Positions 14,480-30,421 of a DNA stretch of 32,000 nt are shown piece by piece. Origin of the DNA: Promethearchaeum syntrophicum (lineage in GTDB: Archaea; Asgardarchaeota; Lokiarchaeia; Sigyniarchaeales; Promethearchaeaceae). The first letter of the stretch is position 1. Every line of letters begins with the position of its first letter. Location of the stretch: NCBI RefSeq assembly GCF_008000775.2, contig NZ_CP042905.2:690001-722000 (forward strand). Reading direction: 5' to 3'. The translations under genes and the position numbers were made by a program. The notes beneath the pieces are model-generated. The model ran no database searches. It worked only from the letters and a program-made list of their open reading frames with translations, and was not told the DNA's origin.

Positions 14480-15229
14480 ATGGTTCGTTTAAATAAACTA
14501 CAAATGGCTAAAAAGAAAACAGCGACAAAAAAGAAAATATCAAAGAAATCTACAAAAAAAAAGAGTTCTAAAAAAACAAGTTCCAAGAAAACTTCCAAGA
14601 AATCATCTTCACCCAAAGCTGTTTCAAAAAAAATAAAATCAAAAAAAACTTCTAAAACAACAACATCTAAATCAAATACTAAATCATCTGTTAAGAAGAT
14701 GAATTATTCAGAAATTGATAAATATATTATGGAAATGCTCGAATTTCATCCACAACTTTTTACTGATGAGATAAAAATCCAATTAGATCTTACTGATTCA
14801 GAATTAAATAAAGCAATAAAACGTCTTAAAAGTAAGAAGAAGATAATAAAAAAATCAATCATGGAAGGATCTAAGTGGAATACTGCTTTATTCAAAATAG
14901 ATAATTATGGATTAAGCCCAAAACCAAAAAAAAAGGCGGTTTTAGTTTGGGATACTGCTAATGATTGTCCTTGTTTTCTGTGTCCGGTAATTTATAAGTG
15001 TTCTTCAGGGCAAAACTATAATAATCCAAGAAGTTGTGATTACTTATCAAATTGGTTAGAAGCTTCAGTTAATGATATTCCTTATGTATCGCCATTTCAT
15101 CCAAATTTCGAGTTGAAAAAGAAGAAAAGTAAATCTAGCATTACCAAAGAAAAGGAAAAAGAATTGGAAAGGGAAAAGGAAAAAGAACTAAAGAAAGAAA
15201 AAGAAAAAGCATTAAAAGTTGTAAATTAA
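14480..15229 (+). CDS. TFE-beta / RNA polymerase III RPC34-like protein (winged helix + Cys cluster) with lysine-rich tails
   Basis: 249 aa. Residues ~74-140 look like a winged helix (..LNKAIKRLKSKKKIIKK.....KWNTALFKI). CPCFLCPVIYKCSSGQNYNNPRSCDYLSNWL matches my recollection of the RPC34/TFE-beta Fe-S motif C-G-x-C-P-V-x3-C-x2-G-G-x5-C-x-Y-x3-W-L. The N-terminal ~70 aa are almost pure K/S/T. The C-terminus is a KEKEKELE repeat. Confidence 0.6.
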   Translation: MVRLNKLQMAKKKTATKKKISKKSTKKKSSKKTSSKKTSKKSSSPKAVSKKIKSKKTSKTTTSKSNTKSSVKKMNYSEIDKYIMEMLEFHPQLFTDEIKIQLDLTDSELNKAIKRLKSKKKIIKKSIMEGSKWNTALFKIDNYGLSPKPKKKAVLVWDTANDCPCFLCPVIYKCSSGQNYNNPRSCDYLSNWLEASVNDIPYVSPFHPNFELKKKKSKSSITKEKEKELEREKEKELKKEKEKALKVVN

Positions 15230-15927: not shown

Positions 15928-17184
15928 ATGGAAGATTTTGAAACCTATTTCCAGCAATTAATTATTAATGAAGAAGGTGGGATTAGGTTCTATTCTTTTG
16001 ATTCCAAAAAATTTAGTAATACGGGGGTTGCTCTCAAAAAATCTATGCCCGTATTTTATAACCCAATTCAAGAATTTAATCGATCAATAACATTGATCGC
16101 ATACAAAGCATTCCAACAGATTTCAGAATCCGATAAAAACTTTGAAATTCTTAAAATTTGCGATTCTATGGCTGCTTCTGGTATAAGATCAATCCGACTT
16201 TTTAAATTTCTTAATAAACATGTCCAGATTATTGCAAATGATTTAAATCCTCTGGCGTTGAAAATTATTCAGAAAAATTTAGCATTAAATAGTGATATAA
16301 TTACGAAGAGTGATATTGAATTATTAAATCAAGATGCACACTTTTTATTTGAAGATTTACAAAATAAAAGAAATTATCAAAGTATTATTGATATCGATCC
16401 GTTCGGAACACCTAATATTTTTATTGAAAGTGCTATTAAAGCCGTATTTTTAGAAGGGCTAATAGGTATTACAGCTACTGATACTGCTGTACTTTTTGGG
16501 GTACGACCTAGTGCTTGCTTAAGAAAATATAACATCAAAAGTCTACGATCTACCTTTTTAAAAGAAGTTGGTCTAAGAATTCTTCTTTATTATGCAGCAA
16601 GTCGCGCTCATCCACACATGAACTATATTGAACCTATGCTTTCTTTTAGTTCTGATCACTATATTCGAGTTTTTATTAGAATTCATAAGGGAAAAACAGG
16701 TATTAATAAAAATTATAAAAATTCGGGGTATATTTTTTGGTGTCGGAAGTGTGATTGGAGAATGAGCATTGGAATGGACTTACATGAAGCTTCGTTTTTT
16801 TGTCCTATTTGCCAATCAAAAGTAGATTATGGAGGTCCCTTATGGATAGGGTCTTTAAATAATCCCGAATTTGTTACAGAATGTATTAGAACTCTTGAAA
16901 ATTCAGAAATATCTGTTATTCCATCGAAGAAAAAAATCCTCAAGATTTTAAATATTATTTTATCAGAAGATAAATTTCCACCAGGATACTATGATCTTCA
17001 CAAAATTTGTGACATGTTAGGTATAAGTGTTGCAAAGAAAACCGAATTAATATTAGAATCAATTAGAAATCTTGGCTATAACGCTGCACGAACTCATATC
17101 GAACCCCGTGCAATTAAGAGTAATATTCCTATCGAGCAATTGAAAAAACTTTTAATTGATTTTCATAAAAAAATTGTTATTTGA
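15928..17184 (+). CDS. trm1: tRNA (guanine26-N2)-dimethyltransferase Trm1
   Basis: The ORF track starts at 15835, overlapping rlmE. The ATG at 15928 (MEDFETYF..) is the sensible start. FYNPIQEFNRSITL, DSMAASGIRSIR, IDIDPFGTP, and the C-terminal zinc motif CRKC...CPIC..GGPLWIG. Confidence 0.9.
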   Translation: MEDFETYFQQLIINEEGGIRFYSFDSKKFSNTGVALKKSMPVFYNPIQEFNRSITLIAYKAFQQISESDKNFEILKICDSMAASGIRSIRLFKFLNKHVQIIANDLNPLALKIIQKNLALNSDIITKSDIELLNQDAHFLFEDLQNKRNYQSIIDIDPFGTPNIFIESAIKAVFLEGLIGITATDTAVLFGVRPSACLRKYNIKSLRSTFLKEVGLRILLYYAASRAHPHMNYIEPMLSFSSDHYIRVFIRIHKGKTGINKNYKNSGYIFWCRKCDWRMSIGMDLHEASFFCPICQSKVDYGGPLWIGSLNNPEFVTECIRTLENSEISVIPSKKKILKILNIILSEDKFPPGYYDLHKICDMLGISVAKKTELILESIRNLGYNAARTHIEPRAIKSNIPIEQLKKLLIDFHKKIVI

Positions 17185-17929
17185 ATCCTTTATCAGTTAA
17201 CATCCATGACCAAACTTTGGGGATTGGGAGATTTGAGTCATTTTTAGTAACGAAAAATTTCATCCTTGAAATTTGTGGTGTTCTGTCTATTTTCACTTCA
17301 AAAGAAGTCCAATAATCAATAATTTTACCTCCATGAGGAATAACTTGAGAAATTTGTTTTTCATTTTGTTTTACTGAGAAAGTATTTAGTAAAACAACGG
17401 GAATATGATATTCCGTTTGAATTTTTTTTAGAGTTGCCAATATTAAAACTAAATCTTGATTCATTCGTGTATTTTTCAAATCTTTTCCTAATTCAAGCAA
17501 ATATAAGCTCGCAATTTCATCTACTATAATCAATCCTACTTTATTTTGCTTAAAAGATTCAAAAAGTTGTTGTATTTGTAAAGACCATTCTAGAACAATC
17601 TCTTTTTGTCTATAAAATGAGGGTGAATGCCATAATAGAAAGTTAGAGTCGGAAAAATCTAAATTATCTTCTAAAATTCTTCTCAATAATTGATCTATCG
17701 GGCTAAATTTTGTATATAGATAAAATATTTTTAAATCGGCTTTCTGTTTTAGGATTTCGTGGGATAATTGGGTGGCAAAAGTCGATTTTCCAACCCCGAC
17801 ATCTCCCCATATCATGGATATAGAGGGATTTTGGAAAAATTTTGGAACAAAATCACTCCAATTAAGAAACGAAATGATTTCTTTTGAATTTTTCTTAAAA
17901 TCATGGTAATCTCTAATTTCATCATTCAT
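17177..17929 (-). CDS. RecA-superfamily ATPase (RadB/KaiC/Rad51-paralogue-like)
   Basis: 250 aa. Walker A WGDVGVGKSTFATQL, Walker B GLIIVDEIASLYL, followed by IPVVLLNT, the RecA-core strand order. No N-terminal DNA-binding domain. Confidence 0.65.
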   Translation of the reverse strand: MNDEIRDYHDFKKNSKEIISFLNWSDFVPKFFQNPSISMIWGDVGVGKSTFATQLSHEILKQKADLKIFYLYTKFSPIDQLLRRILEDNLDFSDSNFLLWHSPSFYRQKEIVLEWSLQIQQLFESFKQNKVGLIIVDEIASLYLLELGKDLKNTRMNQDLVLILATLKKIQTEYHIPVVLLNTFSVKQNEKQISQVIPHGGKIIDYWTSFEVKIDRTPQISRMKFFVTKNDSNLPIPKVWSWMLTDKGFK

Positions 17930-18002: not shown

Positions 18003-18656
18003 ATGTCAGAGTTTTGTATTTATACTAATAATGCACGCCTATTCTACAAAATAACTAAGAAATTTAAAGAGGAATCCATTAAATTTAGTGCAATTGATTC
18101 ATTTGAGCATCTTAATCCAAAATACCGTGTGTTACTGACTACCAAAGAAGATTTGGAAAAATATAATCCTACAATCCCAAGCTTTATAACTTTACTTAAA
18201 GTCAATTCTGACCAATCTCTTGATGAAATTGTACTTTTAACAAAACAAAAACTGAAATTTATTAATAAATTTAATGATCTCATCATTGCAATTGACCCTG
18301 GGTCAATGACTAGTGGAGTTGCTGTTTTTTTAGACGATATATTCATTTATAGTAGAGATTTTTATAATATCAGTCATCTTTTAAACTATATACAAATTGT
18401 ATTTTCCACTTTTCAAGATCATCAAAAAACTATAAAATTAGGAAATGGCAATTCAGAAATTACTGGCTATTTTTTAGATAAATTATACACAATTCAAATT
18501 CCAGAAAATAATATTCAATATCTATTAGTAGATGAATACGGTTCCTCGCACTATAAGGGGAATGGATCATCATCTTTACTTTCAAAGCATGAAAATGCTG
18601 CAATATTAATCGGAAGAAGAAAAGGTGTTCTTCTAACTTCTTCTCTATTAAAATGA
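18003..18656 (+). CDS. RNase H-fold protein, RuvX/YqgF-like C-terminal domain with an unknown N-terminal domain
   Basis: 217 aa. IIAIDPGSMTSGVAV (cf. E. coli YqgF AFDFGTKSIGVAV), LLVDEYGSS (cf. HDERLST) and HENAAILIG (cf. DSASAVIIL), in the same order and spacing as the RuvX family as I remember it. Confidence 0.45.
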   Translation: MSEFCIYTNNARLFYKITKKFKEESIKFSAIDSFEHLNPKYRVLLTTKEDLEKYNPTIPSFITLLKVNSDQSLDEIVLLTKQKLKFINKFNDLIIAIDPGSMTSGVAVFLDDIFIYSRDFYNISHLLNYIQIVFSTFQDHQKTIKLGNGNSEITGYFLDKLYTIQIPENNIQYLLVDEYGSSHYKGNGSSSLLSKHENAAILIGRRKGVLLTSSLLK

Positions 18657-18657
18657 T

Positions 18658-19851
18658 TTAATTCAAATCTTGTCTGATAGAATTCAATTTTTGATTTTTA
18701 GGAACCTCGGATGGATATTTACTAAATAATTTTCCCCATTCGGTTTTATTATATTCCCGAATTCGCTTTTTACCAACAGTATTAATCCAAAATAAGTCAT
18801 GGTAAATTGCACTTAGCATTACAGGGCCCATATTAAATAGAAATGTGTGCATTAAAGGTTCCAAGAATTTAAGTTTACCCTTCCTTACCATTTGATCTCC
18901 CCAAATAACTAAACTCCTGGATACTTCAAACTTCCAATTCTCATCTTTTGCATCTTCATCACCAATTATTTCAATTTGATCAGTATCTCCACAACCCAAA
19001 CCTGCATCGTGGCACATTTTAATATACGGCATCTTCCATGGATCAAAACCCATCATTTTGGCAGCAAACGCATCAACAGCAACTTGATCATAACCACACA
19101 TGATATAATTTTTAATTTTTGGAATCATACATCTCGGTCCAGGACCATCACCAGCAACTGTTCCATCAACAACCGCCATAATATTCGGATGAATTTGTTT
19201 TTGGATAGCTAAAAGATCATGGAGAACCTCGCTCATATATTGATGTGAAAAGTGTCGTCGTTTAGTTAATAACCCACCAAAAGAATTTTTAATAGAACAA
19301 GTTATTCCACCTTGACTTTCTTGATTATTTTTATTAAAATCTCCACCTTTTGCTCCTGTGTGGCCATGAGTTTTAAAAGTAGGGAGATGAATCATATTTT
19401 TCCCGATATATACTTGTGGAATAGAAAATCCTTCCGGAAAAATTTTTGAGTCTAAAGCTTTCAATGGGATTTTTGATTTGAAAGGAACAAATTTAACACG
19501 CGTTAATGGGACGAAATAATTATTATATTTTGTAATAATAGGTGTCCACTTATTTCCTTTTAATCCACGAGCAATATTGGTTACTACAGTTCGATTTTCG
19601 CAAGTAAAGACATTTTTACTGGGAAAACCATCCATTTTTAATTTTCTCAGAACACCTTCAACTTGCCAAGGAGGACTGGAACAAGCAGGATAATATTTAC
19701 TCCATGATAGATTCAATTTGACCATGGTTTTCTTTTCGGGTTTGAAGAAATTCTTGTATCCTGCCATGTCTAAAAGATCTGAATAATCTTGTAAAATTGT
19801 TTTCGAAGATACTTTTTTTATATATATTCTAGGTTTTTCGTTATTCGCCAT
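18658..19851 (-). CDS. DUF362 domain protein
   Basis: 397 aa. Ordered blocks KLNLSW, HLPTFKTHGHTG, SIKNSFGGLL, VVDGTVAGDGPGPRCMIP, GYDQVAVDAFAAKMMGFDP fit the DUF362 pattern (lKtH / lKN.fG / DG..g.eG.GP / D.va.D). Starts 18 nt after the UbiA stop. Confidence 0.7.
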   Translation of the reverse strand: MANNEKPRIYIKKVSSKTILQDYSDLLDMAGYKNFFKPEKKTMVKLNLSWSKYYPACSSPPWQVEGVLRKLKMDGFPSKNVFTCENRTVVTNIARGLKGNKWTPIITKYNNYFVPLTRVKFVPFKSKIPLKALDSKIFPEGFSIPQVYIGKNMIHLPTFKTHGHTGAKGGDFNKNNQESQGGITCSIKNSFGGLLTKRRHFSHQYMSEVLHDLLAIQKQIHPNIMAVVDGTVAGDGPGPRCMIPKIKNYIMCGYDQVAVDAFAAKMMGFDPWKMPYIKMCHDAGLGCGDTDQIEIIGDEDAKDENWKFEVSRSLVIWGDQMVRKGKLKFLEPLMHTFLFNMGPVMLSAIYHDLFWINTVGKKRIREYNKTEWGKLFSKYPSEVPKNQKLNSIRQDLN

Positions 19852-19869
19852 TAATTTATACTATCTCCT

Positions 19870-20814
19870 TTATGATTGAATAAAAAATGCCCAAGAACCG
19901 AGTTCCATATAGAGAGAAATTATCCCTATTATTCCTAATAAGATGCCTCCAAATATCATACCTTTATCTGTAATTAGTTTTTCTGCATTTCTTACAATTT
20001 TTGGGTTAGCTTTTACTAAATATATAAATCGATATATTAGGTATAATGCTACTGGGGTGCTATAAACTAACAAACCTTGGTTTTCCAGAGGAATTATTGA
20101 TCCTTCTTCAAGTGGACCTAATACACAGTAAAGGGTATACATAACAAATAATGCTGTTGCATTTAAAATTAAGAAATTATTTAATAAAGGTGTAGAATAT
20201 GAATCGTAAATTTTTTTATGGTTTTTTGCATTCTCAAGCCCAAGTAATACTAAATCAGCAATTCTTTTCCCAGTAGCTAAAAACAATGCGGTTAAAAATA
20301 CTGTTACAGTCAACCATGGGGAAATTCGTATATTAATTATTGCACAACCCGCAAGAGCTCTCCATATATAATTTGTGCTTAATCCGATTATATCAGCAAA
20401 TGCAATTTTTTTTAAAATGAAATTATATGCAAATCCATTTGCAATTAAAAACAGAAGTAAAACCAAAAATAGTAAATTTTTAAAATAAATCATCGAAACA
20501 ATAAATACAGCCACTATTAAAATTAAAAGAATAATGGCTACTATTATAGAAAGTTCTCCATTAGCCAATGGTCTTTTTTTAATTTTTTCGGAATGAAGTT
20601 TATCAGATTCAAGATCTTTAATATCATTAATGATATAAGATATGGAAGAAGAAAGACATGTTACAATAAATGCAAGAATTAAATCTGGATAAATACTAAA
20701 ATCAAACAATCTACCAGCGAAAAATATACCAATGAACATTATCAAATTCTTGTAGTATTGTCTAATTCGTAAGAGATTAAAAACCGCCAGGATTTTATTC
20801 ATGATTATCAACAT
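19870..20814 (-). CDS. UbiA-superfamily prenyltransferase (decaprenyl-phosphate phosphoribosyltransferase-like motif)
   Basis: 314 aa, about 8-9 TM helices. First Asp-rich motif NDIKDLESDKLHSEKIKKRPLANGELS (nt 20557-20628). The D..H..K..RP.A.G form resembles the Rv3806c-type subgroup more than the DGGGP synthase form, from memory. Confidence 0.8.
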   Translation of the reverse strand: MLIIMNKILAVFNLLRIRQYYKNLIMFIGIFFAGRLFDFSIYPDLILAFIVTCLSSSISYIINDIKDLESDKLHSEKIKKRPLANGELSIIVAIILLILIVAVFIVSMIYFKNLLFLVLLLFLIANGFAYNFILKKIAFADIIGLSTNYIWRALAGCAIINIRISPWLTVTVFLTALFLATGKRIADLVLLGLENAKNHKKIYDSYSTPLLNNFLILNATALFVMYTLYCVLGPLEEGSIIPLENQGLLVYSTPVALYLIYRFIYLVKANPKIVRNAEKLITDKGMIFGGILLGIIGIISLYMELGSWAFFIQS

Positions 20815-20825
20815 TTTCTGATTTA

Positions 20826-23402
20826 TTAATTAAAAAATTTTTCTGGGTGAATCTGACTTCCAATTTTATTCATAAGATTAGTGAAAACACTGATATCTTT
20901 TACATTCTGAATGACAATTTTTGGTTTTTGAATATAAACTACATCAATTTTATTTTTTTCAATAATAAATTCTTCGTTAAAATTATTCTTAATGGAAATT
21001 TTGGATATATTTCCTTCATTATATTCAAAATTTTCAATTTTTCCATCAATCTCGGCGTTTACTGCCTTTTTAAGAATAAAAACAACATCCAACTTATGTT
21101 TAGCATAATATTTTAAAAAATCATCCTCAAATTTTTGGGTAGCCTCATCGTTATGGAAATTAAAATAGAAATCCCCGTGTTTAATCACTAAATTATCCTT
21201 TGAGAATTCAAATTCGTTGGTTTCCACTTCATTAACTTTTTCTGTTTCATTTTTTTCGGTAGGGACTAATTTTAATGTATAATCCAAATAATTTTCTTTA
21301 AATATGACTTCATCCAATTTATACATTTGATAAGTACCTTGTTTTTTTAAAAATATGTGCTCTCCTTTAATTGATTCCAATTCCTCATATGATTTAGGCA
21401 TATTTCTCTTCTTAAAGATTGGTATTTTAACTTCATCAAGTGTGCTATCCTCATTATTATTGGAGATTTTCTCAAAAATTGCTACTCCTGTATATTTTTT
21501 TAGATATTGTGATGATTTTTTCTTATTTTTTCCATTTTTGAAATAAACAGCATCTAATTCAATATTTCTTAAACGTAAAATTCCTTCTTTCCTATATTTG
21601 TAGTGTTCTCCATAAGTAAGTGGCATTTCCTTATGAATAAATGGGTTAATTATTTTTATTTCATCAGGATTTTTCCCTAGAATTACCTTAATTTTATATC
21701 GTAATGGTTCACTAGCATTATCAACATAGAAAATATCTTCTAACTTGCCGAATAATCTTTCATTCGTTTTTAAGTTCAGAAATGCATATGTTTTACCTAT
21801 CTTATAACTTAATTTTTCTTTTAATTTTAGCTGTTCTGCTACATTTTTAATATTTTCAATTTTAAATTGCTTTTTTACTTTAGTTGTTGCCATATTCATA
21901 TATTTTTGCCGCGTTGCGTCAGTTTTTACAAAATACGCTTCTGCTTTTTTCTTTCTTAAGAAAATAATAGGCATTAATGCTTCATAGGTTGTTGAAATAT
22001 CATTTTCATCTAAGGATGCAATAATTCTATGATAACTTGGAGGGTGTGCGTTAATAAAATTTGACAGTAATCCACCCTTTGAAGGTTTTATAATCATTTT
22101 ATTAAGGTATTGTGCAGTTGACATGTAATTAATTAATCGGTTATTTTCAGATACTTTCTCATCACTAAGTAAAGTTGCATCTAATCCAATTTCATGAGAT
22201 GCAGCATAAAAACTCTCGAGATTGTACAAACCTCTTGCAAGTTCTTTTCCATATCCTGCTTTTTTTGTATTTTTATCTGCTGTTGCTTCAAACATTCTGA
22301 CAAATGTATAAAGAAATATACTTATACCTAAACTAATTAAAATAAATACAAATAATGGAAATGGTTGGTCATCTGGGTTAAATGTGTAATCATAATAGGT
22401 TACTGGCCACTTCAATAATTTAAATACTAATATTTCACCAATCGAAATTAATGTTAGACTTAATGTATGTTTTCCTTTTAAATGCGCCAATTCGTGTGCA
22501 ACAATACCTTTTAATTCATCTTCAGGTATATCTTTAAGATTAGGGGCAATTACAGCCATTCTCATGTCCCAGAATGCACCATACGCCATTGCATTTATAA
22601 TGGGATATTTTCCAAACCTTATTTTAATTTTTTTAGGATTCATACCCATCTTAACTGCAACTTCTTCAATAATGCGAGTTAATTCAGGATCATCCGATTT
22701 CTTATACCCCATTAATAAATCAATTAATGGTCCAGTGAAAATGTAAACTATTACATTTGTAATTATTATAACTTCATAAATATAATCATAGAGACTAATT
22801 TCTGTGAAGGGAATGGTTTTAATTGAACTGATTGCAAGCCAAGCTACGAGATAAAGTGCTAAAGTTAAATATTGCGGGGACATAAAACGAAAAACAACCA
22901 TATACTTCCTCCCAAAAAAAGCAAATCCCAGAATCAGCATTAGCCAAAATGACATTGAAAATGCTGTATCACGCCATAAACCATCCTTCGCTAGAATTGT
23001 ATCTAATATACCAGCGAAAAAAATGAAATTGTATGTAATTACTGTGATTAAAAGGATTTTGTTTAGAACCTCATATTCTTTCAATTCATATATTCCAAAA
23101 ATTAGATATAGTGAAAAAGATCCAATAAATGAGTTCATGATATCTTTAGTGAATAGATAAACTGTAATAAAGAGAAAGATAATTACAACTAAATCACTCC
23201 AATCACTTCTTTTACTATTTTTCACCCATGAGATTCCTTCGTTTATTAAAAATATGAATGTAATTCCAAAAGCTATCCATAAACCAATGTCTAAAGGGGT
23301 GGTGGGTAATGAAATATCGGTAAAAATAAATAATGAACTTATAATTCCGATTGTTGCTACTATAAATGAAATTAATAAAACTATTTGTGTATTTTTTTTC
23401 AT
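20826..23402 (-). CDS. polytopic membrane M48-family (HtpX/Ste24-type) zinc metalloprotease with a ~390-aa C-terminal extension
   Basis: 858 aa. About 7 N-terminal TM helices. The M48 core has INAMAYG, HELAH (nt 22482-22496), two further TM helices, EATADK and NAHPPSYHRI. After that comes a K/E/N-rich soluble region with an internal repeat. Confidence 0.8.
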   Translation of the reverse strand: MKKNTQIVLLISFIVATIGIISSLFIFTDISLPTTPLDIGLWIAFGITFIFLINEGISWVKNSKRSDWSDLVVIIFLFITVYLFTKDIMNSFIGSFSLYLIFGIYELKEYEVLNKILLITVITYNFIFFAGILDTILAKDGLWRDTAFSMSFWLMLILGFAFFGRKYMVVFRFMSPQYLTLALYLVAWLAISSIKTIPFTEISLYDYIYEVIIITNVIVYIFTGPLIDLLMGYKKSDDPELTRIIEEVAVKMGMNPKKIKIRFGKYPIINAMAYGAFWDMRMAVIAPNLKDIPEDELKGIVAHELAHLKGKHTLSLTLISIGEILVFKLLKWPVTYYDYTFNPDDQPFPLFVFILISLGISIFLYTFVRMFEATADKNTKKAGYGKELARGLYNLESFYAASHEIGLDATLLSDEKVSENNRLINYMSTAQYLNKMIIKPSKGGLLSNFINAHPPSYHRIIASLDENDISTTYEALMPIIFLRKKKAEAYFVKTDATRQKYMNMATTKVKKQFKIENIKNVAEQLKLKEKLSYKIGKTYAFLNLKTNERLFGKLEDIFYVDNASEPLRYKIKVILGKNPDEIKIINPFIHKEMPLTYGEHYKYRKEGILRLRNIELDAVYFKNGKNKKKSSQYLKKYTGVAIFEKISNNNEDSTLDEVKIPIFKKRNMPKSYEELESIKGEHIFLKKQGTYQMYKLDEVIFKENYLDYTLKLVPTEKNETEKVNEVETNEFEFSKDNLVIKHGDFYFNFHNDEATQKFEDDFLKYYAKHKLDVVFILKKAVNAEIDGKIENFEYNEGNISKISIKNNFNEEFIIEKNKIDVVYIQKPKIVIQNVKDISVFTNLMNKIGSQIHPEKFFN

Positions 23403-23482
23403 GAATTGGTTTAGCTAAAGATTGAATTTCAAATTAATTTTTATATTTCATTTGTTTAAAGCTATTATCGAAGGTATAGATA

Positions 23483-24238
23483 ATGCTTCCTATAGAAAAA
23501 ATCAATTCAATCGATCAACTCAAAGAAGAATATGGTGACAAATTACCAGTACACTTAGGAATTATTTTAGATGGCAATCGTCGTTGGATAAAAAGACAAG
23601 GTATCAGAGACACATTTAAAGGTCATTTAGTTGGTTATAATACCCTTAAAAAAATGATCTACTCTTCATACGATTGTGGAATTAAATACTTGAGTGTATA
23701 CGCATTATCGACTGATAACGTAGCTAAACGTTCAGAAAAAGAAATTAATTATTTATTTCAGCTTCTTCTGAAAGGAATAGAAGAAGTTTTTGAAGAACCT
23801 CTAACTTTTGAGAAAGAAGTTAAAATTCAAGTGTTTGGTAGAATTGAAGATTTATCTCAAGAATTTCAAGAAAAAATTAAAAAAATCCAAGATTCAACAA
23901 AAAAACATAATAAATATTATCTAAATATGTGCATTATTTATGATGGACAAGAGGAAATTGTTGATGCAGTTAAGAAAATCATACGAAAAGGTATACCACC
24001 TGAAAAAATATCAAAAGAAATTATAAAACAAAACCTTTATACTCACAATATTCCTGAGGCAGATTACATTATTAGAACCGGAATGGAAGATGGTGCACGT
24101 ATTTCAGGTTTCCTATTATGGGATTCTTCTTATGCAGAATTCCGTTTTCGAAATGAATTATGGCCAGATTATAATGAAAAAATGTTAATTGAAGATTTAA
24201 AAGAATATATTAGAAGAAACAGAAGAAAAGGAAAGTGA
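23483..24238 (+). CDS. uppS: cis-prenyltransferase (undecaprenyl/dolichyl-type diphosphate synthase)
   Basis: 251 aa. PVHLGIILDGNRRW, SVYALSTDN, IRTGMEDGARISGFLLWDSSYAEF are hallmark UPPS motifs. Confidence 0.92.
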   Translation: MLPIEKINSIDQLKEEYGDKLPVHLGIILDGNRRWIKRQGIRDTFKGHLVGYNTLKKMIYSSYDCGIKYLSVYALSTDNVAKRSEKEINYLFQLLLKGIEEVFEEPLTFEKEVKIQVFGRIEDLSQEFQEKIKKIQDSTKKHNKYYLNMCIIYDGQEEIVDAVKKIIRKGIPPEKISKEIIKQNLYTHNIPEADYIIRTGMEDGARISGFLLWDSSYAEFRFRNELWPDYNEKMLIEDLKEYIRRNRRKGK

Positions 24239-25345
24239 TCATAATAAATTTCTAAGAATAATTTCAGAACTTCTATGATTTTCCCATAATTCTAAGAAGG
24301 ATTTTAGCCTTTCATCATTTTGAAAGATTTTTTCTCTTAAATTGCGTTTTTGCTTCAAAATCGATAGAAATGAACGATCTAACCTTTTAATATAAGTTTC
24401 ACCCATTTTCTCTTCCCTATCTCTTTTCTCACAATAATTTATTGTTTTAATTGCAATCTCTGCAGACATCATTGCATATGGAATACCTTTTCCACTTATA
24501 GGGTCAACCATTCCTCCTGCGTCTCCTACAGCAAAGACAAAATCTTTGTAGAGTATAGGACGCACCCCTACCGGAATAAGATGTGGCGTATATCTGATTA
24601 AATTCGCATCTTTAATAGTGTGATTTACAAGGGGAATATTAAGGAATTTATTAAATTCACTTTTTGTATGTTTAATTTTGCCAATTTGATTACCCCATCC
24701 TACAGTTAATGCATCTTTTTTTGGAAATAACCATGCGTAACCTAAAGGAATAAAATCTTTAATCCCAAAAAATAAGTGAATTTCATCATTTCCTAATCTT
24801 TCATCAATTTTTTTTTTATTTAATTCCATCTCTTGGGTGAGTGTTAAAATTAAATCCTTTTTATCGAATTTCTCCCAGTATAATTTACTTAATGTAGGAG
24901 AATTTACTCCATCGGCGGCTATTATATATTTTGCGGAATATTTTGAATTTGAAGTTCTGATTAGATATCTAGAATTTATTTTTTTTATTTCAAGTAATCC
25001 TTCATTTTGCTTTAATTCCGCCCCACTGGTAATAGCCATATCAGTGAGGAATTTATCAAATTTATTCCTCCAAATAACTGCTCCTTTACCCTTTTTTGAA
25101 TAAATATTTCCGTCAACATGATGAAGAATGAGTTTTTCTACCATTCTATCGATTTTTTCCTCAGGAAATTTTATTTTATCTATTAATTCCCAAGCCATGG
25201 CACCTCCACATGCTTTATATCTTCCATTTTTCCCTAAATCTTCTTTTTCTAATAAACAAATGGAATACCCTTTATCAGCAGCGATTTTTGCAGCAATTGA
25301 TCCTCCCGGTCCTGCTCCAACTACGATAATATCGAATTTTTCCAT
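24239..25345 (-). CDS. geranylgeranyl reductase family flavoprotein (digeranylgeranylglycerophospholipid reductase-like)
   Basis: 368 aa. FAD Rossmann FDIIVVGAGPGGSIAAKIAADKGYSICLLEK, YIIAADGVNS, FAVGDAGGMVDPISGKGI. Last gene of the mevalonate/GGPP operon. Confidence 0.88.
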   Translation of the reverse strand: MEKFDIIVVGAGPGGSIAAKIAADKGYSICLLEKEDLGKNGRYKACGGAMAWELIDKIKFPEEKIDRMVEKLILHHVDGNIYSKKGKGAVIWRNKFDKFLTDMAITSGAELKQNEGLLEIKKINSRYLIRTSNSKYSAKYIIAADGVNSPTLSKLYWEKFDKKDLILTLTQEMELNKKKIDERLGNDEIHLFFGIKDFIPLGYAWLFPKKDALTVGWGNQIGKIKHTKSEFNKFLNIPLVNHTIKDANLIRYTPHLIPVGVRPILYKDFVFAVGDAGGMVDPISGKGIPYAMMSAEIAIKTINYCEKRDREEKMGETYIKRLDRSFLSILKQKRNLREKIFQNDERLKSFLELWENHRSSEIILRNLL

Positions 25346-25361
25346 ATTAATCCCATTATCA

Positions 25362-26363
25362 TTAGTATGTTCTTTGAATAGAGAATAATGCTAATTTTTG
25401 AAGTTCTTTTTTAGATTCTGAATCAGGGAAAATTTCCAGTTTAGCTATTGCTTCATCTAGTTTATTTTTTACAATTTTTTTTGCAATTTCAATAGCCCCG
25501 CTATTCTTTATTAATTCAATTCCTTTACTGATATCTTCATTAGTCTTTTCTTTTTTACTCAAAATTGTAATTAATTCTCTTTTTTCTTGATTTTTAAGGT
25601 GTTCTAATGCATATATTAGTAAGAAGGTTTTTTTTCCTTCTCGAAGATCGCTTCCTATTGGTTTGCCAAATTTTTTTTCATCTCCGATCAAGCCCAAAAT
25701 ATCATCAATAATTTGAAAACTGATTCCAAATTTATTACCGAATTCCTCTAGTGATTTTAACTGAATTTTACTTGCTTTGGCGCATAATCCACCAATAAAT
25801 GTACTTACTTCAAAAAGAGCTCCAGTTTTTAATTCAACCATTCTCATATATTCTTCAATCGAAACATCAATTCTCTCTTCAAATTCAATATCCATTGTTT
25901 GACCTTCACATAATTTTGAAGAAACTCGTCCTAATTCTAGTAAAACTCTATATTTAATATCTTGGGGTATTTTAGCGTGATGTACAAAAACAAAAGCTTG
26001 GGAGAGAAGAAAATCACCCGCTAAAATTGCGAGAGATTCATCCCATTTAGTATGAACAGTGGGAACATTTCTTCTTATCGGATCTTGATCCATAATATCA
26101 TCATGGATTAAACTAAATGTGTGTAGAATTTCTACTGCAGCTGCAATTGGAATAATATTTTCATAATTTTCCGCCAATAAACTATATGCCTTTATTATAA
26201 AGAAAGGTCTAAGCCGTTTTCCGCCTGCAGTAATATAATGTTGCGAGGCTTTCCAAAGAGTTAGAACTTTATTTGATAAATTATTTAGAATAAAATCGTC
26301 AATTTTTTCCGCAATTTCTTGAAATTTTTTTTTTGTTAATTCAGAATTATCCAATTTTATCAC
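25362..26363 (-). CDS. idsA: short-chain trans-prenyl diphosphate synthase, probably GGPP synthase
   Basis: 333 aa. GGKRLRP, first Asp-rich motif LIHDDIMD with Phe at position -5 (HTFSLIHDD), second motif QIIDDILG..GK..GSDLREGKKT. A bulky -5 residue is the known short-chain (C20) determinant. Confidence 0.88.
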   Translation of the reverse strand: MIKLDNSELTKKKFQEIAEKIDDFILNNLSNKVLTLWKASQHYITAGGKRLRPFFIIKAYSLLAENYENIIPIAAAVEILHTFSLIHDDIMDQDPIRRNVPTVHTKWDESLAILAGDFLLSQAFVFVHHAKIPQDIKYRVLLELGRVSSKLCEGQTMDIEFEERIDVSIEEYMRMVELKTGALFEVSTFIGGLCAKASKIQLKSLEEFGNKFGISFQIIDDILGLIGDEKKFGKPIGSDLREGKKTFLLIYALEHLKNQEKRELITILSKKEKTNEDISKGIELIKNSGAIEIAKKIVKNKLDEAIAKLEIFPDSESKKELQKLALFSIQRTY

Positions 26364-26372
26364 CTTTTATTA

Positions 26373-27443
26373 CTATAATCGCTTTTCTAACCAGTTACTT
26401 AAAGGAGGAAGTATTACATATTCTGCTTTCTTTAAATCTCTGACTGATTTACTCCCAGTTAGGAACATTGCACTCTTTAATTCTGAAATTAAAGTATTGA
26501 TATAAGATTCTATTTCAATAGGATTATCAAAAGCACTTTTCAAAAACGGTTGAGCAATTGCTGATATATTAGCACCAATTGCAATACATTTAGCGATTTC
26601 CAATCCATTACGTATTCCTCCACTTCCAATTATTACTGTAGAATTCTGTGCAATTTTTTTGGTTTCAATAATACTTGCTGCAGATGGAATTCCCCAATTT
26701 AAAAATGTATCTCCTATAGCTGTTTTTAATTGATTTGTTTGCTTTTTTGCTCTAGAATATTCAATGGCTGCAAAAGATGTTCCTCCTAAACCAGAAACAT
26801 CTAAATATTTAATACCTATGTTAATTAAGTCATTTGAAACATTTTTAGAGAATCCTGCTCCTGTTTCTTTTATAATAACTGGAATTTTAAGAGTATTATT
26901 CAATTCGGTGATTTTTTTTTTAGCATTAGTAAAATTAGTGTCTCCTTCTGGTTGAATAATTTCTTGCAAAGGGTTCAAATGAATTGCAATTGCATCAGCT
27001 TCAATGGAACGAATAATTAGTTCAACTGAATCAAAGTCATCCATTTGAATTAATTGTGAAATCCCCAAATTTGCAATTATTGGTATGGTAGGAGCAATTT
27101 CTCTTATAGAAGCAAAATTTTTTGATGTATCTGGGTATTCTAGTTGAATTCTTTGACTTCCAACCATTAGTGGGATTTGATGTTTTTCCGCTGCTTGTGC
27201 TAGTCTTCTATTAATCTCTAATCCTAAATTAGTGCCACCAGTTAATGATCCTATTATAATGGGAGCATTTATTGGTTTTCCTAAAAATTTCATAGTTATA
27301 TCAATATCTTTGAAATTAATTTCGGGGAGAGATTTATGGACAAATCTAACACATTCTAGCCAAGTAGTATTTTTGGAATTGACGTTTTCGTTTAACGAAA
27401 TTTTAATGTGGTCGTCCTTTCTTTGAAAGATATCCTTTTCCAT
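26373..27443 (-). CDS. fni: isopentenyl-diphosphate delta-isomerase, type 2 (FMN-dependent)
   Basis: 356 aa. RKDDHIKI, MVGSQR, IIKETGAG, SGLGGTSFAAIE, IGSGGIRNGLE, the TIM-barrel IDI-2 pattern. Confidence 0.92.
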   Translation of the reverse strand: MEKDIFQRKDDHIKISLNENVNSKNTTWLECVRFVHKSLPEINFKDIDITMKFLGKPINAPIIIGSLTGGTNLGLEINRRLAQAAEKHQIPLMVGSQRIQLEYPDTSKNFASIREIAPTIPIIANLGISQLIQMDDFDSVELIIRSIEADAIAIHLNPLQEIIQPEGDTNFTNAKKKITELNNTLKIPVIIKETGAGFSKNVSNDLINIGIKYLDVSGLGGTSFAAIEYSRAKKQTNQLKTAIGDTFLNWGIPSAASIIETKKIAQNSTVIIGSGGIRNGLEIAKCIAIGANISAIAQPFLKSAFDNPIEIESYINTLISELKSAMFLTGSKSVRDLKKAEYVILPPLSNWLEKRL

Positions 27444-27453
27444 ATTTTCACCT

Positions 27454-28284
27454 TCATTTAATTAGGGTTGATAAAATTTTTTCATTTTTCAATGCTTTAA
27501 TAAGTAGATTTGGTTTTTGTCCGTTTATCAATTGAACTGGAATTCCTAATTTACAGATTTTTTTTATTTCGTGTAATTTTCCTCTGATATTACCAGTAAC
27601 ATCGATAGAATCTTCAAATGTTTTTAATTGTAGTAGATCTATATCCTTTAATTTAATAATTGGAATTACACTTGAATCTTCTTCGCCATTAGAAATGATT
27701 AAACCATCTTTATCGAAGCAAAAAATAATCTTATCTATTCTATATTTTGTATTATTTGAAGAAGAAAATGAATTACAGATTTCGTAAATAACTCTATCTC
27801 CTGATAAAATCGAGAAATTATTTGAATCGTGAATTAAGATATCCCCAAAAAGAATAGGTATTATCCCAATATCTAAAAGAGATTCAATATGATTAAATCC
27901 GGTAAATTTTAAATTAGTTCCTTCTTGATAAAAAATACTTGATGTGGTTAAACTCAAAACTGGAATATTCTTGCCTAAGAAACTATTTATAATCTTATTA
28001 TTTAATTTCCTAACACTTTGATGAGTTTTGGCTAGGCCTAATATCTGATTGGGAATGTTTTGATTTAACCCATTCTGGATTGAAAAGGAATTTGCTAAAG
28101 GATGACCAAAAGATCCTGCGCCATGAATTATAATGATCTTGGGTTGGGTCGAAATATGATAATTATCAGATATCTGAGAAATTAAGCTCTTTATCTCTTT
28201 TTCTTTGATGGAATTTGGAATATTTTTATCTGTTAAGATACTACCTCCTAATTTAACTATGATTACAGGGTTTTTATTTACCAT
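27454..28284 (-). CDS. ipk: isopentenyl phosphate kinase (amino-acid-kinase fold)
   Basis: The ORF track starts at a GTG (28293). ATG at 28284 with an AGGTG SD-like motif gives MVNKNPVIIVKLGGSILTDK. IIIHGAGSFGH and ILSGD fit IPK. The start lies inside the 3' end of mvk. Confidence 0.85.
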   Translation of the reverse strand: MVNKNPVIIVKLGGSILTDKNIPNSIKEKEIKSLISQISDNYHISTQPKIIIIHGAGSFGHPLANSFSIQNGLNQNIPNQILGLAKTHQSVRKLNNKIINSFLGKNIPVLSLTTSSIFYQEGTNLKFTGFNHIESLLDIGIIPILFGDILIHDSNNFSILSGDRVIYEICNSFSSSNNTKYRIDKIIFCFDKDGLIISNGEEDSSVIPIIKLKDIDLLQLKTFEDSIDVTGNIRGKLHEIKKICKLGIPVQLINGQKPNLLIKALKNEKILSTLIK

Positions 28285-29251
28285 ACTTAACACCTTGATT
28301 ATTAATTGAAGTAATTATTGAAGAGTATCCTAGCTTCTTCAATTTTTCTTTAATATTTTTTAAATCTTTTAATTTTCCTATGGAGATCACGCATCCACCT
28401 TTACCTGCACCAGTTAATTTAGAACCGTATGCATTATTAGATATCGAAATTCTAGTTATTTCTTCGATATCTGTTGTTGAGAGACCAATTTCCATTAATA
28501 TTTGATGATTCAAATTCATTAAATGGCCGAATTCAACCAAATTTCCATTTTTTAATTCCTTTAAACCCTTTTCAGTTATTTTACCTATATTATTAAATAA
28601 TTCAGTTGAGATTTTCGGCTCTTTATCACAAAATTCTTTGACATTCTTAATTGCTTCTTTAGTATTATGAGTTTTTCCAGTGTATGTTATTAGGATTTGA
28701 AATTGTTTTAAAAAATTAAACCTTTGAAAATTTTGATTTTTAAAGAATATAAGACCTCCTTGGGAACATGCAGTATTATCAATTCCAGATGGTTTCCCAT
28801 GAACTTCTTTCTCCATTTCGTATGAAAGGGTTGATAAATTTCTACTATTTAATTCTAAATTATAAAATTCATTAAGTGCGCCTAGTAAAGATATTGAAGA
28901 TGAAGCAGAAGATCCAAGACCTGATTCTGGCCATAAATCAGATTGAATTTCGATCTCTATTTTTTCCATCAATATTTTATATTTCTTTGAAAATAATTTT
29001 AAACCTATGGCAATCTGACTAAATTTTGATGGAATTTTATTAAAAAGATCTTTCATATTCAAGAAACTAAAGGTTTGCTCGTAATTTTTTAAAATTAATG
29101 AAATTCCATTTTGATCGCTTTCTGAGATCTGACAAGATGAAGAAACATCAATTGCAATCGCTAAGGCAGGATATCCATAAACAACAGCATGTTCTCCAAA
29201 TAAAATACACTTACCAGGGGCTGATGCAATAGAAGGTCGCATTTTTTTCAA
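28274..29251 (-). CDS. mvk: mevalonate kinase (GHMP family)
   Basis: 325 aa. SAPGKCILFGEHAVVYGYPALA, GHMP motif ESGLGSSASSSISL, KLTGAGKGGCVI. Confidence 0.92.
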   Translation of the reverse strand: MKKMRPSIASAPGKCILFGEHAVVYGYPALAIAIDVSSSCQISESDQNGISLILKNYEQTFSFLNMKDLFNKIPSKFSQIAIGLKLFSKKYKILMEKIEIEIQSDLWPESGLGSSASSSISLLGALNEFYNLELNSRNLSTLSYEMEKEVHGKPSGIDNTACSQGGLIFFKNQNFQRFNFLKQFQILITYTGKTHNTKEAIKNVKEFCDKEPKISTELFNNIGKITEKGLKELKNGNLVEFGHLMNLNHQILMEIGLSTTDIEEITRISISNNAYGSKLTGAGKGGCVISIGKLKDLKNIKEKLKKLGYSSIITSINNQGVKYGK

Positions 29252-29263
29252 TCGTCCAAATGT

Positions 29264-30421
29264 TTATTTTCGTGAATGAAGTTTCATATGGCCCGATTGA
29301 ATTCCTTCATCAGCTAGAGCCCGTAAAGCTGCAAAATTTTGTGCCAAACCTAAAGCAGCAGCTATTTGAGAGAGTTCATCTGCATTTTTTACATCTAATA
29401 TTTTCAAAGCTATTTTTGACATCGGATGTTTATTAATAATGCCTCCAAAAGTTGCCATGGGCATGGGGATTTCAATCGTTCCAACTAAATTATCATCATT
29501 ATCAACATAATAATCTGTTAATGGCCCATAATTACCATTCAATGAAGCAAATGCATGTGCTCCGGCTTCTATAGCTCTTACATCATTCCCCGTGGCTATA
29601 GCTAATGCATCAATTCCATTCATTATTCCCTTGTTTGCTGTTGCTGCTCTGAAAGGGTCCGCTTTGGCAAATGCTTGAGCGTCAAGAATTCTCTCTATTA
29701 TTCTTTTTCCTCCAATCAAATCTTTATTAAATACCGCAGAACTAATTGCAACTCGATAAATTGCTAGATTCGAAATTATTTTCAAATTAATTTGAGCCTT
29801 TACTATTTCTTTTTCGATTATTACATGAGCAATTTTCTCTACCATAGTATTTACCGTATTTGCGCCCATAGCATCAAGAACATTTACAAATAGATGTAGT
29901 ATTATCATCTGCCCTCGTTCCGTAGATATTTCACGAACTTCTAAACTTTGTGCTCCTCCACCCATTTGAACAAGAGTTTTATCGCATAAATTTGCAATTT
30001 TTATTAAATAATCTGTATTTTCCATTAAAATTTTTTTCACATAATCTGAATTCGTAAAATTAGTTAATTGGATTTGTCCTATCATTATAGAATTTACAGG
30101 TTCCGATCGAAATCCTCCAGATTTTCTAGCAATTCTTGCTCCATTACTTGCTGCTGCAACTACAGAAGCTTCTTCAGTAACCATTGGTATTAGATAATCT
30201 ACGTCATTAATTTTAAAATTAGTTGCAATGCTAAAGGGTAAAGAATAACATCCTATTACATTTTCACTCATCATATCTAATTGTTCATCATTGAAATATC
30301 CATAATTTTCTAATATCTGCCTTTCATCTTTCTCTAAATTAACCAATTTTGAGATACACGCTTGTCTTTCAAAGAAAGAAAGTTTATGAAAACCTGAAAT
30401 TTTCGAATGATCCTTTTTCAT
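29264..30421 (-). CDS. hmgA: HMG-CoA reductase, class II (bacterial type)
   Basis: 385 aa. ENVIGCYSLPFSIATNFKINDVDYLIPMVTEEASVVAAAS, DAMGANTVNTM, ATANKGIMNGIDALAIATGNDVRAIEAGAHAF, GIQSGHMKLHSR align almost block-for-block with my recollection of the Pseudomonas mevalonii class II enzyme. Confidence 0.93.
   Translation of the reverse strand: MKKDHSKISGFHKLSFFERQACISKLVNLEKDERQILENYGYFNDEQLDMMSENVIGCYSLPFSIATNFKINDVDYLIPMVTEEASVVAAASNGARIARKSGGFRSEPVNSIMIGQIQLTNFTNSDYVKKILMENTDYLIKIANLCDKTLVQMGGGAQSLEVREISTERGQMIILHLFVNVLDAMGANTVNTMVEKIAHVIIEKEIVKAQINLKIISNLAIYRVAISSAVFNKDLIGGKRIIERILDAQAFAKADPFRAATANKGIMNGIDALAIATGNDVRAIEAGAHAFASLNGNYGPLTDYYVDNDDNLVGTIEIPMPMATFGGIINKHPMSKIALKILDVKNADELSQIAAALGLAQNFAALRALADEGIQSGHMKLHSRK

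Follow-up and report, generated by a model that had tools for sequence, protein, structure and literature searches.

Lipid-linked pentofuranose donors are known from bacterial pathways. In the mycobacterial decaprenylphosphoryl-arabinose (DPA) pathway, the decaprenyl-phosphate phosphoribosyltransferase (DPPRS) Rv3806c is accompanied by the phosphatase Rv3807c and the epimerase DprE1/DprE2. In more general terms, bacterial pentofuranose glycosylation combines a UbiA-type polyprenyl-phosphate phosphoribosyltransferase (PPPRS), a phosphatase, an optional epimerase, a flippase and a glycosyltransferase of the GT-C type, and it has been described only in bacteria (PMC11127046). The system of Citrobacter youngae comprises ORF15 (PPPRS-PRP), a MATE flippase, a GT-C enzyme of family GT136 and an optional epimerase of the short-chain dehydrogenase/reductase (SDR) family (PMC11127046). 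Here we analyze a locus of the Asgard archaeon Promethearchaeum syntrophicum that lies within a stretch of 32,000 nucleotides (contig NZ_CP042905.2, positions 690,001 to 722,000; hereafter the window, to which all coordinates without a locus name refer). Three consecutive genes on the minus strand of this window encode a giant M48 zinc metalloprotease, a UbiA protein and a DUF362 protein. Sequence comparisons give good support to a conserved Asgard gene string that has a putative dolichyl-phosphate phosphoribosyltransferase at its centre and genes for glycosylation or dolichol around it. The known kind to which it would belong is the lipid-linked pentofuranose donor pathway, and what is new is the unprecedented partners, M48 and DUF362. 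A literature search found no publication describing this gene cluster in Asgard archaea.

The UbiA protein is most likely a polyprenyl-phosphate phosphoribosyltransferase

The UbiA gene (19870-20814, minus strand) encodes a protein of 314 amino acids (aa) that matches PF01040 (5e-18) and contains the motif NDIKDLESD, encoded at 20602-20628. Against the NCBIfam model for DPPRS, NF008977, this protein scores 176.7 bits (6.8e-52) and against NF008978 137 bits, as compared to 28-34 bits for models of the prenyltransferase, UbiA and digeranylgeranylglyceryl phosphate (DGGGP) synthase types. Its sole relatives in the PDB are Rv3806c structures (8j8j, 4.4e-23). The ligand residues of Rv3806c were taken from the cryo-electron microscopy paper (PMC10994848) and mapped with MAFFT onto 81 Asgard sequences. 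Twelve of the 13 checked ligands of phosphoribosyl pyrophosphate (PRPP), Mg and polyprenyl phosphate are retained in the window UbiA. Across the whole Asgard set, the Rv3806c positions R22, K28, Y70, N73, D74, D77, D81, K87, Y138, K143, Y157 and R192 are kept in 81/81 sequences, while the R90 position is K or R in 81/81 and K208 is K in 68/81. The Mg and pyrophosphate ligands N73, D77, R22, K87, R90, Y138 and K143 correspond to N63, D67, R16, K77, R81, Y130 and K135 of the window UbiA. For the 5-phosphate and polyprenyl phosphate, K28, Y70, Y157 and K191 correspond to K22, Y60, Y149 and K183, the first three being present in all 81 sequences and K183 being invariant in a 14-sequence alignment. 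In Rv3806c, the ribose 5-phosphate is bound by K28, Y70 and Y157, of which K28 and Y157 are ligands of decaprenyl phosphate as well, and ordinary UbiA enzymes do not share the phosphoribose sites (PMC10994848).

With the ligands for PRPP and polyprenyl phosphate kept, the Asgard UbiA should move phosphoribose onto a lipid phosphate, and not a prenyl group onto a protein. It is most likely a PRPP-dependent polyprenyl(dolichyl)-phosphate 5-phosphoribosyltransferase of the DPPRS/PPPRS (Rv3806c) type, and the product is likely to be dolichyl-phosphate-ribose-5-phosphate.

A membrane-lipid or quinone prenyltransferase (a DGGGP synthase, or an enzyme like MenA or UbiA itself) would also belong to PF01040, and the gene could then owe its place to the mevalonate, geranylgeranyl diphosphate (GGPP) synthase and geranylgeranyl (GG) reductase genes around it. 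In the window it is near uppS, 3.4 kb from the GG reductase gene and 4.5 kb from the GGPP synthase gene, and homologs have been automatically named 4-hydroxybenzoate polyprenyltransferase by JGI. We nevertheless regard this account as very improbable in view of the low scores for such models, the invariance of the Rv3806c-specific phosphoribose-5-phosphate ligands and the fact that mevalonate neighbours occur only in Lokiarchaeales-type loci, their place elsewhere being taken by OST1, GT4 and transporter genes (see below). As to individual candidates, a DGGGP synthase and an aromatic prenyltransferase were rejected in view of family scores and ligand conservation; the initial annotation had likewise counted on an enzyme other than the canonical DGGGP synthase.

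The gene string is conserved across Asgard archaea

We retrieved 80 loci from species-representative Asgard genomes by UbiA homolog alignment and searched the open reading frames (ORFs) of these loci with the window proteins. In pairwise comparisons of the loci, UbiA identity is 66% at the median and 38% for the most divergent pair. Of the 67 loci with enough upstream DNA, 61 have a full-length M48 gene, with matching N-terminal, core and C-terminal parts, immediately 5' of UbiA in the same orientation, and the gap between these two genes is 4-49 nt (median 29). The position of DUF362 is visible in 44 loci, and in 42 of these the gene is located 3' of UbiA in the same orientation. It adjoins UbiA in eight Lokiarchaeales-type loci, including that of Lokiarchaeum ossiferum, lies ∼700 nt away behind a gene for a 228-aa PHP phosphoesterase in ten, and is separated from UbiA by 7.4-9.4 kb in 24 loci that have an inserted ATP-binding cassette (ABC) transporter operon of the Opp/Dpp/Nik type. 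Another 33 loci, in which the ABC operon is present and the sequence ends before the DUF362 position, are outside the 44. The two exceptions are a locus with DUF362 on the opposite strand (L037) and a second UbiA copy in one metagenome-assembled genome (L044).

Since it recurs in 80 species-level Asgard genomes with UbiA identities down to 38%, the adjacency of M48, UbiA and DUF362 exceeds chance. The M48-UbiA pair is the conserved core of the string, whereas the tight three-gene form is lineage-specific because DUF362 is found 0.7-9 kb from UbiA in most Asgard lineages. Two irregular loci were also seen. The second UbiA copy mentioned above (L044, as opposed to L079 in the same genome) has no M48, ABC operon or DUF362 nearby, and in L045 (10001-11331) a short duplicated UbiA fragment is present directly 3' of the full gene.

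In the window, the spacers measure 11 nt between UbiA and M48 (20815-20825) and 18 nt between DUF362 and UbiA (19852-19869). NCBI annotates the second ATG as the UbiA start, which shortens the protein to 310 aa and widens the M48/UbiA spacer to 23 nt. A GGAG sequence is present 13 nt 5' of the DUF362 ATG. On the other side, M48 diverges from uppS (23483-24238, plus strand), a cis-prenyltransferase gene of the UppS/DHDDS type (PF01255, 5.3e-61; TIGR00055, 2.3e-57), across an 80-bp A/T-rich intergenic region (23403-23482) with TATA-like runs that are uninformative in a genome of 30% GC. This layout and the assignment of the four genes to the M48, UbiA, DUF362 and UppS families are just as the initial annotation had described them, and the synteny that it wanted to see in relatives is present as a same-strand string. 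Its three-gene operon stands as a conserved string, but not in its tight spacing, which is confined to one lineage. Similarly, the linkage to uppS applies to Lokiarchaeales-type loci and not beyond them: only there do uppS and mevalonate genes flank the triad, with uppS divergent from M48 in every such locus with enough DNA (L001, L003, L004 and L006-L008).

Neighbouring genes point to glycosylation and dolichol

In non-Lokiarchaeales lineages, two to three genes 5' of M48, we found a gene for a homolog of ribophorin I (OST1), a 611-aa type-I membrane protein (L075:3207-5042, L043:1854-3710 and 50 other loci). PF04597 was matched by 17 of 25 members (best 6.6e-23), and this homolog also matches PDB entry 8whn (2e-44) and human RPN1 (4.6e-8). 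OST1 is followed by a Trm112-like gene and then by a GT4 gene of the Alg7/AglH/WecA family (PF00953, ∼1e-30), which encodes a polyprenyl-phosphate sugar-1-phosphate transferase, and it is preceded by genes for a GT1 glycosyltransferase, a DUF354 protein and a hexapeptide (LbH) acetyltransferase. OST1, GT4 and M48 are neighbours in most Asgard lineages and not in P. syntrophicum, whose string is flanked instead by uppS and a complete isoprenoid cluster. At the other end of the string, many loci carry one to three tandem genes for transmembrane (TM) acyltransferases of the HGSNAT/AT3 type 3' of DUF362 on the opposite strand (L058:14261-15427, L075:14230-16525, L024:6561-10107, L070:6535-10253). 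Only in L. ossiferum is an inorganic pyrophosphatase gene located directly 3' of DUF362 on the same strand (L004:12186-12752), which fits a PRPP reaction that releases pyrophosphate.

In other Asgard lineages the gene string sits in an extended glycosylation island, and dolichyl phosphate is the common denominator of both types of flank. The product of uppS is likely the source of the polyprenyl or dolichol backbone used by the UbiA enzyme. These neighbours, together with the Rv3806c-type ligands of UbiA, agree with the theme of a membrane-embedded, polyprenyl-phosphate-linked modification that had been put forward on gene adjacency. According to glycoproteomics, the N-glycans of P. syntrophicum are linear (304.13-Pen-Hex-...) and contain a pentose (PMC11284389).

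The M48 protein represents an Asgard-restricted subfamily

The M48 gene (20826-23402, minus strand) encodes 858 aa, with a match to PF01435 at residues 237-461 (1e-16). According to an AlphaFold2 (AF2) model (pLDDT 87.4, pTM 0.86), the protein begins with a membrane domain (aa 1-231; 22710-23402) of eight predicted TM helices (3-26, 36-62, 69-85, 88-106, 111-136, 142-163, 176-195 and 204-231), with which hydropathy agrees. This domain has the invariant charged residues E55, D70, E106, R165 and R172, and no Pfam, PDB or out-of-family sequence match to it was found. The catalytic core (aa 232-470; 21993-22709) adds two further TM helices and the HELAH motif (22482-22496); all 62 sequences compared share the zinc site H303, E304 and H307 as well as E372, the third zinc ligand. 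The C-terminal extension (aa 471-858; 20829-21992), which is predicted to be cytoplasmic, has a helical linker followed in the AF2 model by several small beta-barrel modules whose strands span 538-833. This region, with an LKKPVNN motif at about aa 777-783, is conserved family-wide, and the local Foldseek matches of its barrels were weak (Tudor, Hfq/Sm and chromo-barrel folds, each with E>0.1). The topology of the N-terminal domain is probably N-in, C-in, and by the positive-inside rule the active site and the C-terminal region are predicted to face the cytoplasm. With its catalytically intact site and 10 TM helices, the protein is predicted to be an active zinc protease.

Full-length homologs (35-85% identity) were found in Asgard archaea only. 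A hidden Markov model (HMM) search of 1.84e9 cluster representatives returned just 71 members of this M48 family at E<1e-30, and in this search the N- and C-terminal parts never occurred outside the family. On the basis of these comparisons, the protein forms a distinct, Asgard-restricted M48 subfamily with no demonstrable membership in either Ste24 or HtpX. Its best score against HtpX equivalog models is 42.8 bits for a cutoff of 275, all cutoffs being at least 245; these scores and the architecture of 858 aa with 10 predicted TM helices rule out a generic HtpX, as the initial annotation had expected.

That annotation had also thought of Ste24-type processing of prenylated proteins, with UbiA attaching the prenyl chains. 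Such a system, a CAAX-type protease resembling Ste24 combined with a UbiA enzyme that supplies or attaches the isoprenoid, could be an archaeal precursor of the eukaryotic machinery that processes prenylated proteins, and its host is indeed an Asgard archaeon. When the M48 model was compared with the PDB by Foldseek, ZMPSTE24 and yeast Ste24p ranked highest (∼465 columns, E 7e-7, probability 1.0, TM-score 0.45 normalised to the target, root-mean-square deviation 13-15 Å), with BlaR1 far weaker, although this match lacks a fair comparison as full-length HtpX is missing from the PDB. The M48 family profile furthermore matches Ste24p at 7e-9 over a stretch that includes the helix before the catalytic domain, and aligns with HExxH and RxxExxAD. 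However, Pfam did not detect the Ste24 N-terminal five-helix domain PF16491 in M48, and in hhalign comparisons a Ste24-like, PF16491-bearing protein (P0469) aligned with the core only (residues 225-394, 1e-12), whereas an HtpX-like protein (P0450) aligned over a longer stretch and with a better score (residues 214-461, 5e-16). The nearest out-of-family sequences are also mostly HtpX-like. For its part, UbiA has the ligands with which a phosphoribosyltransferase binds PRPP and polyprenyl phosphate, and to our knowledge no UbiA-superfamily enzyme prenylates proteins. Processing of prenylated proteins by this pair is thus hardly probable, and cleavage of prenylated CAAX proteins by M48 is unlikely. 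A specific Ste24 ancestry of the protease is not upheld either, given the lack of PF16491, the core-only alignment and the HtpX-like neighbours.

DUF362 is a candidate pentose-modifying enzyme

The DUF362 gene (18658-19851, minus strand) encodes a protein of 397 aa without TM segments that is predicted to be soluble. It matches PF04015 (1.1e-17; 65.2 bits for a cutoff of 24), as do all 56 Asgard homologs, and its identity across Asgard archaea is 62-97%. The AF2 model (pLDDT 84.9, pTM 0.88) has its best and only significant PDB fold matches in the lactate racemase (LarA) family (9eia, 4nar and 9q3j; Foldseek probability 0.99-1.0, E 6e-4 to 1e-3). Sequence searches of the PDB gave no match for DUF362, and tblastn against plasmids gave one weak, unannotated match. 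Pfam clan CL0471 holds both DUF362 and the LarA domain DUF2088, DUF362 has been used as an outgroup for LarA, and LarA-fold enzymes use a nickel-pincer cofactor (PMC11770544). Fusions of DUF362 with CBM9 and dockerin occur in gut metagenomes (PMC5742341), which by analogy hints at carbohydrate substrates. Its position and predicted fold make DUF362 a candidate pentose-modifying enzyme.

About 90 aa beyond the Pfam domain (aa ∼300-397; 18658-18960) are helical and rich in Trp, Arg and Lys, with W306, W317, W355, W372, R312, R323 and K324 invariant. Such a region could act at the membrane interface, as would suit a protein with a lipid-linked substrate.

A different partner for DUF362 is suggested by the ABC operon, behind whose OppF gene it closes the same-strand string in 24 loci. 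It could for example be a nickel- or peptide-dependent enzyme tied to this transporter, in which case loss of the operon would have brought it next to UbiA in P. syntrophicum as a side effect. The best NCBIfam match of the permease, the nickel ABC permease Opp2B, would agree with this idea (6.8e-83, below cutoff), and so would the nickel-pincer cofactor of LarA-fold enzymes. Nevertheless, the NCBIfam matches of the operon are split between Dpp, Opp and Nik, all below cutoff, so that they do not discriminate a nickel transporter, and the substrate-binding protein (SBP) has DppA as its best match, with a weak score. Sequence searches with DUF362 gave no sign of nickel-pincer cofactor binding, and in 18 loci that lack the ABC operon DUF362 is nonetheless located behind UbiA, with or without the PHP gene in between. 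We consider a functional tie to the transporter improbable, and retain DUF362 as a candidate for pentose modification.

In the SBP (L043:11240-12970 and ∼55 other loci), an N-terminal anchor, MEMEKKNLAIIILAVVLAASGVGN, is nearly invariant and the remainder diverges. The main N-glycoprotein of P. syntrophicum, DSAG12_03090, is also an oligopeptide-type SBP, a likeness by type.

A possible route to a lipid-linked pentose donor

With moderate confidence, we read the triad as the compact form, seen in Lokiarchaeales-type loci, of a gene string for membrane glycosylation that extends across Asgard archaea and would make a lipid-linked pentose donor. In the first step, which has the support of sequence, UbiA would convert PRPP and dolichyl or polyprenyl phosphate to lipid-P-ribofuranose-5-phosphate at the cytoplasmic face, the backbone of the lipid coming from the neighbouring UppS and isoprenoid genes. 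The 5-phosphate would then be removed, for which the PHP phosphoesterase could serve in some lineages. In the third and weakest step, DUF362 may alter the lipid-linked pentose, perhaps as an epimerase or isomerase, to yield a lipid-linked pentofuranose donor for surface glycans. Finally, M48 would most likely process or quality-control membrane or secretory proteins of the glycosylation/translocon machinery, or else control the pathway proteolytically; it is co-inherited with the transferase and located among the OST1 and GT4 genes in other Asgard archaea.

Several observations weigh against this pathway. With regard to the transferase, the score of 176.7 bits is below the NF008977 equivalog cutoff of 234, and by its scores UbiA is a divergent member of the DPPRS clade, not an equivalog. 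The ribose-O3 ligand Q135 is not kept, the window UbiA having G127/F128; in the MAFFT alignment the corresponding position is G in 81/81 sequences and is followed one residue later by Gln in 71/81, with Phe in the window. The window has no 5-phosphatase, flippase or GT-C gene, the PHP phosphoesterase is present in only 10 of the 80 loci, and no MATE, SMR, GtrA or GT-C Pfam domain was detected among the neighbours scanned, which were a subset of the locus ORFs. In the linear N-glycan chain the pentose comes second, a position for which cytoplasmic assembly fits better than late extracytoplasmic addition from lipid-P-pentose. As for DUF362, its TM-scores to LarA are just 0.32-0.36, and a LarA_N Pfam match is absent in all 56 homologs, even at E up to 10. 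With 62-80% identity it is also conserved far beyond UbiA or M48, to a degree not usually seen in glycan-tailoring enzymes; this and the intervening ABC operon call for caution on a pentose-modifying role. A protease that accompanies a phosphoribosyltransferase lacks a mechanistic explanation, and we know of no role for a giant membrane zinc protease or an enzyme with a LarA-like fold in lipid-linked sugar pathways.

The remaining objections concern the gene order, and these can also be taken to mean that three unrelated housekeeping genes, for a membrane-protein quality-control protease, a lipid-carrier enzyme and a soluble enzyme, are adjacent through slow rearrangement of an Asgard block. 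M48 is missing from the string in 6 of 67 loci, and in most lineages the ABC operon of 7-9 kb stands between UbiA and DUF362 (at least 24 loci). The conserved block also holds clearly unrelated genes in a conserved order on both strands (Trm112-like, the gene for a 217-aa protein, KaiC/RadA-like ATPase, Trm1, RlmE and RadB), so that some of the synteny may be inertia, and DUF362 evolves much more slowly than its neighbours. In addition, 35 loci (in the range L009-L079; for instance L043:9969-9997) share a 29-nt M48-UbiA spacer with the BRE/TATA-like consensus tAAAaTTTAATATaAATGtgtCTTTCAAa, a sequence that is absent from the 20815-20825 spacer of the window. Its mean pairwise identity is 0.79, versus 0.56 for nearby third codon positions. 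In these loci UbiA may have its own promoter directly 3' of the M48 stop codon, and M48 and UbiA need then not share a transcript. Mere neighbourhood is nevertheless hard to reconcile with an M48-UbiA gap that stays at 4-49 nt in 68 loci with UbiA identities down to 38%, or with the finding that DUF362, where the ABC operon or PHP gene is lacking, closes up to UbiA and does not drift. Moreover, the upstream flank was swapped in Lokiarchaeales, from OST1/GT4 to uppS and mevalonate genes, with the triad kept and the new flank again dolichol-related. We therefore judge unrelated neighbours to be an unlikely explanation, albeit one that keeps appreciable weight, and prefer the lipid-linked pentose donor string.

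A more far-reaching version of this preferred reading is doubtful. It would unite, in an Asgard lipid-linked pentose pathway, the dolichyl-phosphate phosphoribosyltransferase, DUF362 as a new lipid-sugar epimerase/isomerase, perhaps with a nickel-pincer-type cofactor, and an Asgard-only, Ste24-like chamber protease whose cytoplasmic Tudor/Sm-like barrels lie beside OST1/Alg7-like enzymes at a translocon/glycosylation site. The whole would be a prokaryotic counterpart of the Ste24-OST neighbourhood in the eukaryotic endoplasmic reticulum (ER).

Other features of the window

Beyond uppS, a contiguous isoprenoid cluster on the minus strand (24239-31614) encodes GG reductase, GGPP synthase, type 2 isopentenyl-diphosphate isomerase (IDI), isopentenyl-phosphate kinase (IPK), mevalonate kinase, 3-hydroxy-3-methylglutaryl-CoA (HMG-CoA) reductase and a decarboxylase resembling mevalonate diphosphate decarboxylase (MVD). 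This cluster is kept in Lokiarchaeales-type loci, and the presence of the MVD-like protein and IPK suggests a phosphomevalonate-decarboxylase route. Downstream of the triad, a convergent gene (18003-18656, plus strand) ends 1 nt from the DUF362 stop codon. It encodes the 217-aa protein, which has no Pfam match, and forms a divergent pair with the gene for a 250-aa KaiC/RadA-like ATPase (17177-17929, minus strand); this pair adjoins DUF362 in many Asgard loci. Elsewhere in the window, ribosomal protein S3 (4324-5289, minus strand) has a long Lys/Glu-rich C-terminal tail, and in a 249-aa protein (14480-15229, plus strand) the N-terminal ∼70 aa are rich in Lys and Ser and resemble a histone tail or linker. 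Rfam and tRNA scans revealed no RNA genes in the window.

Comparison with known systems

If our reading is correct, the string would provide a defined route to a lipid-linked pentose donor in Asgard archaea, the closest prokaryotic relatives of eukaryotes, and might be the origin of the pentose in the N-glycans of P. syntrophicum, which is so far unexplained. The presence of an Asgard-specific, catalytically intact M48 protein in a conserved island with ribophorin I/OST1 and an Alg7-like transferase bears on the origin of the ER-type glycosylation and quality-control machinery. For DUF362, a large family without a known function, the string is a first concrete and testable genomic association, and an epimerase or isomerase role, if true, would be the first function assigned to it.

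The transferase is the part that most resembles a described system. With mycobacterial Rv3806c the Asgard UbiA shares the UbiA fold, the NDxxDxxxD motif and the Mg, pyrophosphate, 5-phosphate and polyprenyl-phosphate ligands; it differs in lacking Q135 and, the host being an archaeon, in a carrier that is presumably of the dolichol type. As in the DPA pathway, a soluble enzyme is encoded downstream and, in some Asgard lineages, a phosphoesterase gene is nearby. The phosphatase candidate is of the PHP type and not PAP2, however, and the Asgard string has no DprE1/DprE2 homologs, a DUF362 protein with a LarA-like fold standing in the place of the modifying enzyme. DUF362 itself departs from LarA in having no LarA_N sequence match and in its extra C-terminal helical part of ∼90 aa. 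The tightest Asgard partner, the giant M48 protease, has no counterpart in mycobacteria.

The C. youngae system is similar in that a predicted PRPP-dependent UbiA-type synthase for a lipid-P-ribofuranose donor is encoded among glycan-assembly genes. An optional epimerase diversifies the pentose in systems of that type, and DUF362 may occupy this place in Asgard archaea. In contrast to C. youngae, neither a MATE/SMR flippase nor a GT-C enzyme was identified near the Asgard genes, the Asgard UbiA is not fused to a HAD-type phosphatase, and M48 and DUF362 are unrelated to the bacterial partners.

Like Ste24/ZMPSTE24 (M48A) and HtpX (M48B), the Asgard M48 protein combines an HEXXH motif and a distal Glu in a zinc site at TM helices that is predicted to face the cytoplasm, and its core aligns with both subfamilies. 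It differs from them in the number of TM helices, which is predicted to be 8+2 in 858 aa as compared to seven in Ste24 and four in HtpX (∼290 aa), and in a C-terminal beta-barrel extension of ∼390 aa that is present in neither.

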